Positions 5,224-6,434 of a DNA stretch of 8,111 nt are shown one piece after another. The position numbers and the translations under genes are program-made. The notes under the pieces are model-generated. The model was not told where the DNA came from. It did not search any database and saw only the letters and a program-made list of their open reading frames with translations. Every line of letters begins with the position of its first letter. Position 1 is the stretch's first letter. Source of the stretch: a virus (Duplodnaviria; Heunggongvirae; Uroviricota; Caudoviricetes); IMG/VR virus record IMGVR_UViG_2563366830_000002; one strand, written 5' to 3'.

Positions 5224-5650
5224 ATCAATGACTCCGTACGCAATTAAATTATTACCAATTTAACCACATATGATTTATTTATCGTAGACAGTTGACATTT
5301 AACGCACGAACTATTACCCTTCAGGTAAGCAAAGAGTTCATTCCGGTTATTAACCTGACTGGCTTGTCGTTAAATTGAACAGGTGGGGTGAGCTTTTATT
5401 TTGAGCAGTACGGTGTATGGCACATGCGCCGATAGCTGTCTGGATACGTTTAAGGGGCACCCTCCCTTGCTCGGGCAAACGAACCAGGTAGCCGGAATGT
5501 GCAAGTCGAGCGGTTTTATTCCGCGCACGGGGATTCACCATCCCGGCGATTCGGTGTGACACCTCGGAAGAGACGAGGGTACAACGATGAGAGCATTTAT
5601 GGAGCCGCGACAAAGTGTGGCGCCTTAACAGGCTAAGTGCTCTCAGCGTT

Positions 5651-5727
5651 GTGGCATTAGCTCAGTCGGACAGAGCAACCGCCTTCTAAGCGGTTGGTCG
5701 CAGGTTCGAATCCTGCATGCCACGCCA
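5651..5727 (+). tRNA. tRNA-Arg (anticodon UCU), including 3' CCA
   Basis: Hand-folded cloverleaf: acceptor GTGGCAT/ATGCCAC (7 bp), D-stem GCTC/GAGC, anticodon stem ACCGC/GCGGT with loop CTTCTAA (U33, anticodon TCT at 5685..5687, A37), T-stem GCAGG/CCTGC with loop TTCGAAT, discriminator G, CCA encoded. Differs from E. coli argU as I recall it. Confidence 0.9.
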
Positions 5728-5770
5728 GAATCACGCCTAAGGACCGTGATGCCAGAAGTTCCAGGTGCTT

Positions 5771-5812
5771 GGCGGTGATAGTTTCCCTTGAAGGACTATC
5801 ACCGCCCTTTTT
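5771..5812 (+). terminator. Strong rho-independent terminator downstream of the tRNA
   Basis: Perfect 12-bp stem GGCGGTGATAGT / ACTATCACCGCC with a 12-nt loop, followed by CTTTTT. Confidence 0.8.
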
Positions 5813-5890
5813 ACAGCAGGACGCCATTGCGATGACTTCATGCTGTAAACCCGTACAGCCACGGAAGGCATAACTCATTGCTTCCAGTTC

Positions 5891-5913
5891 GCCCGGTTCG
5901 CCGGGCATTTTTT
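5891..5913 (+). terminator. Terminator-like hairpin (GCCCGG-TTCG-CCGGGC + ATTTTTT) directly upstream of the ORF139 RBS; possible attenuator
   Basis: 6-bp GC stem with UUCG tetraloop and a 6-T run seen directly. The RBS AAGGTGA (5914..5920) and ATG (5925) follow with no room for a promoter in between. Confidence 0.55.
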
Positions 5914-5924
5914 AAGGTGAGATC

Positions 5925-6344
5925 ATGAAGACAATTGATATGTTGGCTAAGTATCTAAATGAATGGCCATTAAAATATTCTCGTATCGTTCAGGCTGAAG
6001 ACTGCATTTTTTATGGCGTTTTTGCTGGTAATGAAATGCATTACGAAGTAATTCAGAGTGAGGGACTGGCCGGGTTAACTCTTAGCGAAGACCATGGTAC
6101 TAGCGTTACGTTCCATGACTGGATAACAGCACAACGTTCTGAAATGGAAAAAGGCGATGTTTTTGATATTTCTCGCGCTGTTTACGCTAAAGCAAAAAGT
6201 GATAATGATTACATGAGCGAACACTTATACAACATGAAGTTACAATGCCTGCATGCGGCGCTTATTCAGAATGGGCACTTCGATAAAACAAGTGCCATCA
6301 ATATTGCGGAAGCCATCAACGCTGGATTTAATGCCATTAAGTAA
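5925..6344 (+). CDS. Hypothetical protein (139 aa), low-GC accessory (moron) gene of unknown function
   Basis: ORF track. SD AGGTG 5 nt upstream of ATG; own terminator downstream. First 60 nt contain 18 G+C (30%) by my count versus 28/60 (47%) in a sampled capsid-gene stretch (1501..1560). Orientation is opposite to all structural genes. No recognisable motif, no obvious signal peptide or TM segment. Confidence 0.7.
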   Translation: MKTIDMLAKYLNEWPLKYSRIVQAEDCIFYGVFAGNEMHYEVIQSEGLAGLTLSEDHGTSVTFHDWITAQRSEMEKGDVFDISRAVYAKAKSDNDYMSEHLYNMKLQCLHAALIQNGHFDKTSAINIAEAINAGFNAIK

Positions 6345-6364
6345 CACCGTGACATGTCACAAAC

Positions 6365-6391
6365 AGCCAGCCGATGAGCTGGCTTTGTTTT
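6365..6391. terminator. Bidirectional intrinsic terminator between the convergent ORF139 and terL
   Basis: Stem AGCCAGC / GCTGGCT with 6-nt loop, flanked by AAAC upstream and TTGTTTT downstream on the plus strand; on the minus strand it is followed by GTTTGTG. Confidence 0.6.
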
Positions 6392-6434
6392 ATCCTCATC
6401 AGAGGATATCAACGACATTATCCCCACCAGCGGA

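Follow-up and report, generated by a model that had tools for sequence, protein, structure and literature searches.

Why are the genes for the large terminase subunit (terL) and the portal protein more than a kilobase apart in a Caudoviricetes prophage, and what does the DNA between them do? We asked this of an 8111-nt stretch (IMG/VR record IMGVR_UViG_2563366830_000002; hereafter, the window), in which an initial annotation had seen an antisense cargo module, acquired horizontally and splitting a normally contiguous junction. Our analysis points to a different picture, in which the gap is a conserved, phage-regulated early unit that opposes the packaging and head operon and in which a leader RNA enables RNA polymerase to pass two internal terminators (T1 and T2). 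We hold this reading tentatively, with a probability of roughly 0.4. The island itself is ordinary: It is a known genus-wide feature, with pieces partly annotated in the phiV10 and epsilon15 records. Its interest lies in a conserved and widespread structured RNA inside it, which has no Rfam match and is placed where an antiterminator would be.

The gap measures 1211 bp, between the terL open reading frame (ORF) at 6435–7910 and a 68-aa ORF at 5017–5223, both on the minus strand. As first described, its tRNA, its three terminators (T1–T3), and its low-GC ORF of 139 aa all run the opposite way, on the plus strand. The parts of the unit, in the order of its predicted transcription, are as follows.

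5292–5320, plus strand: rightward sigma-70-type promoter, TTGACA (5292–5297), 17 nt, TACCCT (5315–5320); a 9/12 match, the best in 5215–5420.
5313–5328, no strand assigned: operator-like palindrome ATTACCCTTCAGGTAA, overlapping the −10 element.
5408–5580, plus strand: core of the structured RNA, with helices P1, P2, P3, P4, and P5 and a pseudoknot (covariance model R1, 135 bits, E = 1e-42).
5582–5650, plus strand: 3′ hairpin of the RNA, CAACGAUGAGAGCA ... UGCUCUCAGCGUUG, from a minimum free energy fold; it finishes at the 5′ end of the tRNA, one base before it.
5651–5727, plus strand: tRNA-Arg with anticodon UCU and an encoded CCA end (ARAGORN; Rfam tRNA, 73.3 bits over the full model, canonical cloverleaf).
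5771–5812 (5771–5806 in the terminator scan), plus strand: terminator T1, a 14-bp stem followed by CTTTTTAC, about −22.8 kcal/mol.
5891–5913 (scan, 5891–5906), plus strand: terminator T2, GCCCGG TTCG CCGGGC followed by ATTTTTT, abutting the ribosome-binding site of the ORF.
5925–6344, plus strand: 139-aa cargo ORF (phrog_4846, 2e-89; 103 homologous protein clusters).
6365–6391 (scan, 6365–6384), read on both strands: terminator T3, which ends the plus-strand unit and has a weak minus-strand tail 3′ of terL; 90%–92% conserved.

The window comes from a Uetakevirus (epsilon15/phiV10-like) prophage: phiV10, epsilon15, HEMP4, PAS61, and TL-2011b are 82%–98% identical to it across the region, and positions 5380–5650 match exactly a prophage in Escherichia coli MS 196-1. 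The MS 196-1 prophage may be defective; in that chromosome (L138, 1–1078) the head genes are followed closely by an IS3-family transposase and a truncated coding sequence. If the gap had split a once-contiguous junction, one might look for relatives with terL and portal side by side, as the initial annotation proposed. We found the gap in 10 of 10 relatives, from Escherichia, Salmonella, Enterobacter, and Klebsiella hosts. Positions 5224–5925 align to these relatives at 71%–98% identity across most or all of their length (in several pieces for epsilon15, Tyrion, and SPN9TCW), and the T3 region (about 6342–6434) aligns in eight. The tRNA-Arg(UCU) is likewise present in eight of the 10, being absent from epsilon15 and Tyrion, whereas the ORF segment has matches in HEMP4 and PAS61 only, plus Tyrion in part. 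Base composition was 36% GC at 5224–5410, 39.8% in the 139-aa ORF (GC3 38%), 51%–54% in the flanking structural genes, and 52%–58%, like the remaining phage, in the structured RNA, tRNA, and terminators. On this comparison of sequences, the left 700 bp (promoter, leader, tRNA, T1, and T2) together with T3 form a genus-core scaffold, and the ORF alone is cargo. The proposal of horizontally acquired cargo thus stands for the ORF, with its low GC and its replacement by other families at related loci (see below), and falls for the gap as a whole; of the tRNA and ORF, only the former behaves as a core gene.

How would such a unit be switched on? The TTGAC and TTACC of the rightward promoter are invariant in alignment A5 (seven phages, four host genera), and the same promoter type (TTGACA, 17 nt, TACCTT) lies upstream of the RNA at other loci. 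The AT-rich stretch described earlier is real, but the −10 element proposed within it (TATGAT, 5269–5274) lacks a usable plus-strand −35. The palindrome over the promoter is the sole site of its pattern in the window (two strand matches vs. 0.05 expected). In phiV10 the pattern ATTACC-N5-GGTAA yields 24 strand matches, at about 13 sites, against 0.41 expected. The sites lie at 86–120, 3251–3267, 20496–20512, 20876–20892, 24691–24707, 26869–26884, 31952–32030, 32726–32742, 33112–33127, and 35069–35147 (locus L163). They are mostly intergenic, in the repressor/cro region, downstream of the repressor gene, and just after terminators, and two are at the start of terS. The homologous site in the epsilon15 record is annotated as “repressor, lysogeny,” that is, a repressor-binding site. 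This dispersal is like the C1 operator network of P1 and unlike a single immunity region. Because the phage's operator palindrome covers the only good promoter, the unit appears to be wired into the regulatory circuit of the phage, and we infer that it would be switched on upon loss of the repressor, as are lambdoid PL and P1 Pban.

Downstream from this promoter lies the structured RNA. Its core comprises 157 positions, about 55 of them invariant nucleotides, and its pseudoknot joins the CACC of the P4 loop to a downstream GGUG. In alignment A2 (29 representatives), 96.2% of cells were paired and 12 pairs were compensatory; none of 500 shuffles did as well, and sliding the partners out of register reduced pairing to 30%–44%. 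Alignment A6 (80 distinct sequences) gave 96.1% paired cells, with 13 of 29 pairs compensatory; its sequences were aligned to the covariance model, and hence the fit favors the structure. The pseudoknot is supported by a change from C-G to A-U in three lambdoid representatives. The 3′ hairpin pairs in register at 15 of 16 positions, with compensatory changes to GAUGGCU/AGUCAUC (L162) and AAGAGCA/UGCUCUU (L015). We assign the RNA to the plus strand because many of its G-U pairs would be A-C mismatches on the minus strand.

An Rfam 15 cmscan of the window (E ≤ 1) found no family on 5408–5650; it returned the tRNA and one chance-level match only (Plastid-ycf2, antisense to the tRNA, at 24.7 bits where the gathering score is 65.7). 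Five related loci, including lambdoid ones, gave no Rfam match over the element or over the tRNA-like scaffold described below. Literature searches, by topic as well as by sequence string, turned up no account of the structured RNA, and the Pas sRNA preprint and the ZX5 and mEpimmI papers are silent on it. Two strings, GGGGATTCAC and GGGGTGAGC, recall what we take to be ERIC primer sequences; an ERIC-like repeat was considered and dropped, since each phage has a single copy of the element and its covarying fold is not palindromic.

The RNA extends far beyond Uetakevirus. Positions 5410–5650 are ∼80% identical to unannotated DNA in the lambdoid phages mEp460, cdtI, and 2H10 and in Stx2c-converting phages; further matches at ∼80% were found in P1, P7, D6, the Klebsiella phage SopranoGao, and phages listed as infecting Stenotrophomonas. 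An invariant 19-mer, GGTAGCCGGAATGTGCAAG, occurs in at least 120 IMG/VR contigs and in 24 GTDB species representatives, nearly all of them Enterobacterales. Of 5426 complete E. coli genomes, 1843 contain a blastn match to the segment, and plasmids account for 554 of the matching places. Among the 40 E. coli matches listed, the matched DNA carried no annotated feature except for one “hypothetical protein” called by PGAP. A K-12 copy was considered, and the CPS-53 region upstream of yfdP gave no match to R1, so that K-12 transcriptome data are uninformative for this RNA.

We compared 136 loci, anchored on an exact match to the 19-mer. A tRNA-Arg lies just downstream from the RNA in 35 (Uetakevirus type) and a tRNA-Ile(CAU) just upstream in 17 (P1 type); in the other 84, no tRNA lies within 600 nt. 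Most of these 84 lie downstream from a gene for an S24/HTH cI-like repressor, on the same strand and in several immunity types. In the lambdoid loci the RNA is about 150–650 nt 3′ of an S24-family cI, with two large cI clusters (31 and 26 loci) and further types. The order in mEp460 is the cI stop, the cI terminator, operator-like repeats, TTGCAT-17-TATCTT, the RNA (about 25 nt past the predicted transcript start), a strong terminator, and the early-left genes. The mEp460 record annotates a Q-like antiterminator only and no N-like gene, and gp35, the first early-left protein, has no Pfam match, N included. In P1 the RNA sits in the C1-controlled ban operon, between tRNA-Ile and ban, beginning about 14 nt after the tRNA. 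Three unrelated types of phage carry the RNA, and in each it runs in the same direction as a repressor-controlled operon. Across 117 distinct upstream contexts, a sigma-70 match of at least 9/12 was found within 150 nt in 49% on the RNA strand; the opposite strand gave 2.6% and a control region 8%. The median distance from the −10 to the first helix was 53 nt.

Copy number and integrity vary at a few loci. One IMG/VR contig (L032) has two same-strand copies about 650 nt apart, at 3998–4155 and 4805–4960 (115 and 145 bits). In epsilon15 (L002, 4026–4115) a deleted remnant scoring 34.8 bits remains, without the tRNA, under the record label “RNaseIII, mRNA processing.” In several records, “hypothetical protein” calls cover the structured RNA or the tRNA-like scaffold or oppose the tRNA in antisense: PhiV10p04 (L001, 3158–3409), a call at L009 3308–3475, and, of the same kind, gp37 (2443–2811) and gp36 (2853–2996) of mEp460 (L012). 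The calls at these three loci are probably spurious. Elsewhere in mEp460 (206–394), within the antirepressor gene gp41 and on its strand, lie a C4 antisense RNA (83.6 bits) and isrK (67 bits), known families unrelated to the structured RNA.

A terminator scan returned four sites in the scanned region, T1–T3 and a weaker one at 5343–5362, against 1.8 expected from shuffles, and T1–T3 are each followed by a T run. The GGCGGT...ACCGCC CTTTTTAC of T1 is kept in relatives, and T1 and the sequence beyond it are common to lambdoid mEp460. T2 is kept in Tyrion, SPN9TCW, and a Klebsiella phage, and the T3 hairpin is annotated in the phiV10 record as a terminator downstream from terL. Strong hairpin-plus-T-run terminators were also found within ∼300 nt 3′ of the RNA in several classes; a wider terminator finder was too permissive, giving equal counts on both strands, and only its hits at or below about −17 kcal/mol were used. 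The three terminators had been described as a fence around the island, one of them bidirectional. All three sites are there, but T1 and T2 lie inside the unit, separating the tRNA from the ORF, and fence nothing; T3 is bidirectional only weakly, through a T-rich minus-strand tail (GTTTGTG), and T1 and T2 have a T tract on the plus strand only.

The position of T1 and T2 bears directly on the ORF. No plus-strand sigma-70 match of 7/12 or better was found in 5700–5930, from the tRNA to the ORF, which speaks against an autonomous cassette. With no promoter after the tRNA, and with the T tract of T2 abutting the ribosome-binding site, the ORF would be made only from transcripts that read through both T1 and T2. 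The homologs of the 139-aa ORF are confined to Enterobacteriaceae prophages and are all “hypothetical”; it has no Pfam, PADLOC, or PDB-sequence match, and its AlphaFold2 model is weak (pLDDT 64.6, pTM 0.36). The slot that it occupies holds at least 12 unrelated families across 47 Uetakevirus-type loci, among them PF13876 (N4 gp49/Sf6 gp66; in phiV10 and epsilon15), phrog_4780, phrog_3163, phrog_11227, and phrog_4846. In the Klebsiella phage ST512-KPC3phi13.3 the slot carries a PF11195 (Tad2-like) gene, a different ORF from that of the window. The 139-aa ORF was itself considered as Tad2 or another known defense or anti-defense protein and gave no profile match in Pfam or PADLOC.

The tRNA raises a separate question, as it may serve decoding, processing, or both. 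AGA is used at about 2 per 1000 codons in E. coli. Across the phiV10 genome its use is 7.1 per 1000, and codon supplementation by tRNA-Arg(UCU) is plausible; its acceptor stem presumably differs from that of E. coli argU. At the position of the window tRNA, other loci carry a tRNA-like scaffold: mEp460 (about 2742–2875), Tyrion (L006, about 3190–3320), L015, L021, L063, and L146. It consists of a 6-bp acceptor-like stem, GUGGUG/CACCAC, followed by AACC, a D-like hairpin GCGCAGGCUGAUGCGC, and a T-like hairpin GCCGGAGAUCAGCACCGGC; the center is variable (20–150 nt), the arms covary, and Rfam gave no match. Because a non-decoding mimic can replace the tRNA, the role of the tRNA as a processing signal may equal its role in decoding. 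In a megablast search, a 1601-base query containing the tRNA drew 65 Synechococcus phage records; the tRNA is their likely cause, since the tRNA-free segment 5330–5650 drew none. Just past the 3′ end of the tRNA there is a further conserved hairpin (5730–5751, ATCACG...CGTGAT).

These observations can be arranged into a mechanism, for which we infer repressor control, early timing, RNase P processing, and antitermination. Sigma-70 polymerase would start at TTGACA-17-TACCCT when the palindrome-binding protein, presumably the phage repressor, is absent. The transcript would comprise an AT-rich leader of ∼80 nt, the structured RNA of ∼240 nt (5408–5650), and then the tRNA-Arg(UCU). RNase P, cutting where the tRNA begins, would free the RNA precisely at the foot of its last hairpin, and the tRNA would decode AGA, a codon commoner in this phage type than in the host. 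T1 and T2 would stop most transcripts. The leader RNA would act in cis on its own polymerase, as does the put RNA of HK022, letting some polymerases pass T1 and T2 and express the ORF before T3 terminates the unit. The ORF would be the sole exchangeable cargo, with a Tad2-like candidate anti-defense gene in one relative. We favor a put-like antiterminator acting in cis because the RNA heads repressor-controlled operons ahead of terminators, in the place that N and nutL would occupy in N-less lambdoids. A bolder proposal is that 5408–5650 is the founding member of a new class of large processive antiterminator RNAs, acting alone or with Nus factors. In many N-less lambdoid prophages such a class would stand at PL in place of N/nutL; it would also work within the ban operon of P1 and gate the Uetakevirus early unit of tRNA and accessory (possibly anti-defense) gene, with RNase P releasing it at the tRNA or its mimic. 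This we regard as possible but on the doubtful side.

How does this RNA compare with known systems? To our knowledge, very few systems control elongation by RNA only: HK022 put and its HK639 relative, and EAR in Bacillus. The put-type elements cause read-through of terminators in cis without a phage protein and are sensitive to mutations in the zinc-binding domain of rpoC. The HK022 putL/putR elements and the annotated “putL-like antiterminator RNA” of HK639 resemble the RNA described here in being cis-encoded, past an early PL in an N-less lambdoid, and before terminators. HK639 has a left-operon copy only, as do the phages here. This placement is found both in the window (promoter at 5292, RNA at 5408, T1 at 5771, T2 at 5891) and in mEp460 (PL-like promoter, RNA, terminator). 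The likeness is positional, read from sequence: put has two stem-loops in ∼70 nt, whereas here a core of 157 positions forms five helices and a pseudoknot and is followed by a 70-nt hairpin. The HK639 element starts ACGGCG...CAUGCGUCG and contains GGAAGAG, in which P1 and the P5 loop of the present RNA are faintly echoed; HK639 lacks the invariant 19-mer, and R1 finds no match at E ≤ 10 in the HK022 or HK639 loci. The put RNA, of about 70 nt and two stem-loops, still works when untethered from its transcript (PMC9378689), so that release of the RNA by RNase P would not exclude put-like action.

With lambda N/nutL and the rrn leaders, the RNA shares a promoter-proximal place in an early operon and, in one subclass, a boxA; like the rrn spacer tRNAs, a tRNA or tRNA-like element lies within the same transcript. 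The boxA evidence is uneven. In one lambdoid subclass, a perfect canonical rrn-type boxA (TGCTCTTTAACAA, 13/13) follows a short hairpin at about 3363–3375 of L094; this boxA, GCTCTTTAACAA, is about 30 nt past the RNA core, and L038 and L051 have near matches. In the window the 3′ strand of the 3′ hairpin, UGCUCUC (5638–5644), bears a weak resemblance to boxA that is lost in L162. A boxA would be single-stranded and GCUCUUUAACAA-like; UGCUCUC lies within a covarying helix, and a perfect boxA is confined to the L094 class. The idea of boxA as a general feature was dropped for the window, where this strand covaries with its partner. The collection to which mEp460 belongs has been described as Nus-dependent (PMC11893012). 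The RNA further differs from N/nut systems in that mEp460 lacks an N-like protein and that there is no boxB-type hairpin with a GNRA-like loop; no N-like (arginine-rich) ORF was found in the ORF list of the window gap.

Two other comparisons concern the cargo and the tRNA. Morons and accessory hot spots are alike in their variety of unrelated small genes (at least 12 over 47 loci), atypical GC, and 3′ terminator, and are unlike this unit in that its ORF has no promoter of its own and the surrounding promoter, RNA, tRNA, T1, T2, and T3 are genus-core. The T4 tRNA region encodes stable RNAs alongside tRNAs. In the tRNA cluster of the P1 ban operon, tRNA-Ile stands beside the structured RNA described here, and in the window a tRNA for a host-rare codon, AGA, would be co-transcribed with that non-coding RNA in an early operon. 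Unlike those tRNA genes, the tRNA here is dispensable to the module, given its absence from epsilon15 and Tyrion and its replacement by the scaffold in lambdoids.

Several points weigh against an antiterminating leader. Promoters, operator, and terminators were all called by their match to a consensus. At E ≤ 10, R1 has no hit in HK022 (24000–32000) or anywhere in the HK639 genome, which leaves the RNA without homology to any proven antiterminator RNA. If an antiterminator were constitutive and lay ahead of three terminators, polymerase would run on into terL in the antisense direction unless T3 held out against it. A flanking tRNA (Uetakevirus, P1) or tRNA-like scaffold (lambdoid) suits a processed, free RNA at least equally. 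Epsilon15 is without most of the RNA and without the tRNA, yet it keeps T1, T2, and a cargo ORF, so the ORF can persist without the RNA. The P1 RNA is 2.3 kb from its promoter, with no obvious terminator between it and ban. The boxA-like strand of the window is locked in a covarying helix, and, as to the tRNA, AGA makes up only 1.5 per 1000 codons in the structural genes of the window and is not used at all in the 139-aa ORF.

The strongest alternative is that the RNA is a stable product acting in trans. RNase P, acting at the tRNA or tRNA-like element, would excise it (in P1, tRNA 3′ processing would do so), and it would serve as a decoy, sponge, or regulator, directed for example at host defense or an RNA-binding protein; T1 and T2 would then end an RNA-only operon, and the ORF would be expressed by leakage. 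We consider this possible, though not probable. The last hairpin stops one base short of the mature 5′ end of the tRNA, and the P1 copy begins about 14 nt past tRNA-Ile. The replacement of the tRNA by a covarying scaffold in lambdoids and Tyrion suggests that a processing signal is conserved and not decoding. The ∼55 invariant nucleotides and the pseudoknot are what an RNA with a specific partner typically shows, the neighboring cargo includes the Tad2-like anti-defense candidate, and tandem copies occur at one locus (L032). Action in trans, however, does not require the consistent placement after early promoters and before terminators, and most classes have no terminator directly after the core, although a free RNA should bring one of its own.

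Less probable by some way, the RNA could be a protective or processing leader for the tRNA and a long untranslated transcript, as a shield against Rho or nucleases or as a set of RNase III/E sites, with polymerase unchanged at intrinsic terminators. The “RNaseIII, mRNA processing” label over the epsilon15 remnant fits such a role, as would the canonical boxA of one subclass, which would suit Rho shielding; the lambdoid early-left leader, several hundred untranslated nucleotides, is a natural target of Rho. Yet 84 of the 136 loci have no tRNA within 600 nt, the size of the RNA, its pseudoknot, and its ∼55 invariant positions far exceed the needs of a processing site, and the boxA-like strand of the window is helix-constrained.

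The moron view of the initial annotation, in which the whole 1.2-kb segment was acquired horizontally as a self-contained unit that split a once-contiguous junction, appears slightly less probable still. The low GC of the ORF (39.8%) and its exchange for unrelated genes in relatives are what one would expect, and the leader RNA, T1, and tRNA-like module common to lambdoids and P1 suggest that the module has moved between lineages at some time. The view is at odds with a gap found in every relative examined, a conserved left 700 bp, a tRNA in eight of 10 relatives, the lack of a promoter directly 5′ of the ORF, a unit promoter bearing the dispersed operator palindrome of the phage, and the phage-like GC (52%–58%) of the element, tRNA, and terminators. 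Finally, it is very improbable that the segment works on the minus strand, as part of a late terL-to-gp3 mRNA or as an 87-aa ORF (5350–5613, minus): A frame is open in 77 of the 136 loci, with a weak phrog_6855 match (E = 6e-4, 21 residues), and public records annotate a coding sequence there (mEp460 gp37), but several representatives have stops in all six frames and length differences that are not multiples of three (on which we rejected coding at 5350–5613), the many G-U pairs become A-C on that strand, and flanking genes and promoters are co-directional with the plus orientation in four independent contexts.

The early unit that we favor adjoins the leftward packaging and head operon, and the remaining features of the window mark that junction.

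6435–7910, minus strand: terL, large terminase subunit (ORF list; annotated as terL in phiV10, epsilon15, and PAS61), the right boundary of the gap.
5810–5849, no strand assigned: inverted repeat TTTACAGCA ... TGCTGTAAA between T1 and T2, seen as a minus-strand self-match in blastn and conserved in alignment A3.
5245–5298, minus strand: nearly invariant block and candidate leftward promoter for gp3 and portal, ATGTCA (5298–5293), 17 nt, AATCAT (5275–5270); 8/12, a consensus match only.
5017–5223, minus strand: gp3-like 68-aa ORF (phrog_831, E = 2e-36; epsilon15p03 and PhiV10p06 in relatives), the left boundary of the gap and first gene of the portal block.
3323–5002, minus strand: portal (PF12236, E = 3e-187), with head genes beyond, also on the minus strand.

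The suggestion that the portal operon has its own promoter is plausible, given the candidate at 5298–5270. Columns of about 45–88 in alignment A5 are nearly all identical, and the 47-nt AT-rich block at 5245–5291 (TTAAATTATTACCAATTTAACCACATATGATTTATTTATCGTAG...) is almost invariant from E. coli to Klebsiella phages, and its conservation exceeds that of the coding sequence beside it; a promoter for gp3/portal or a binding site for a regulator may lie here. A GGAG lies 8 nt 5′ of the ATG of the 68-aa ORF at 5223, as read from the sequence.

For Uetakevirus, the terL–portal gap is a fixed scaffold with one exchangeable slot, a good place to seek anti-defense genes. Should the RNA prove to be an antiterminator, it would be a second, structurally unrelated RNA in the put/nutL position, offering a new handle on how nascent RNA reprograms polymerase, and it would explain early-left expression in N-less lambdoids. 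Even if it acts in trans, it would be an abundant, strongly conserved phage RNA with a pseudoknot and no Rfam family, over which two phage records place “hypothetical protein” calls. And if the RNA does found a class of processive antiterminators, about a third of sequenced E. coli genomes would hold an unannotated regulator of RNA polymerase.

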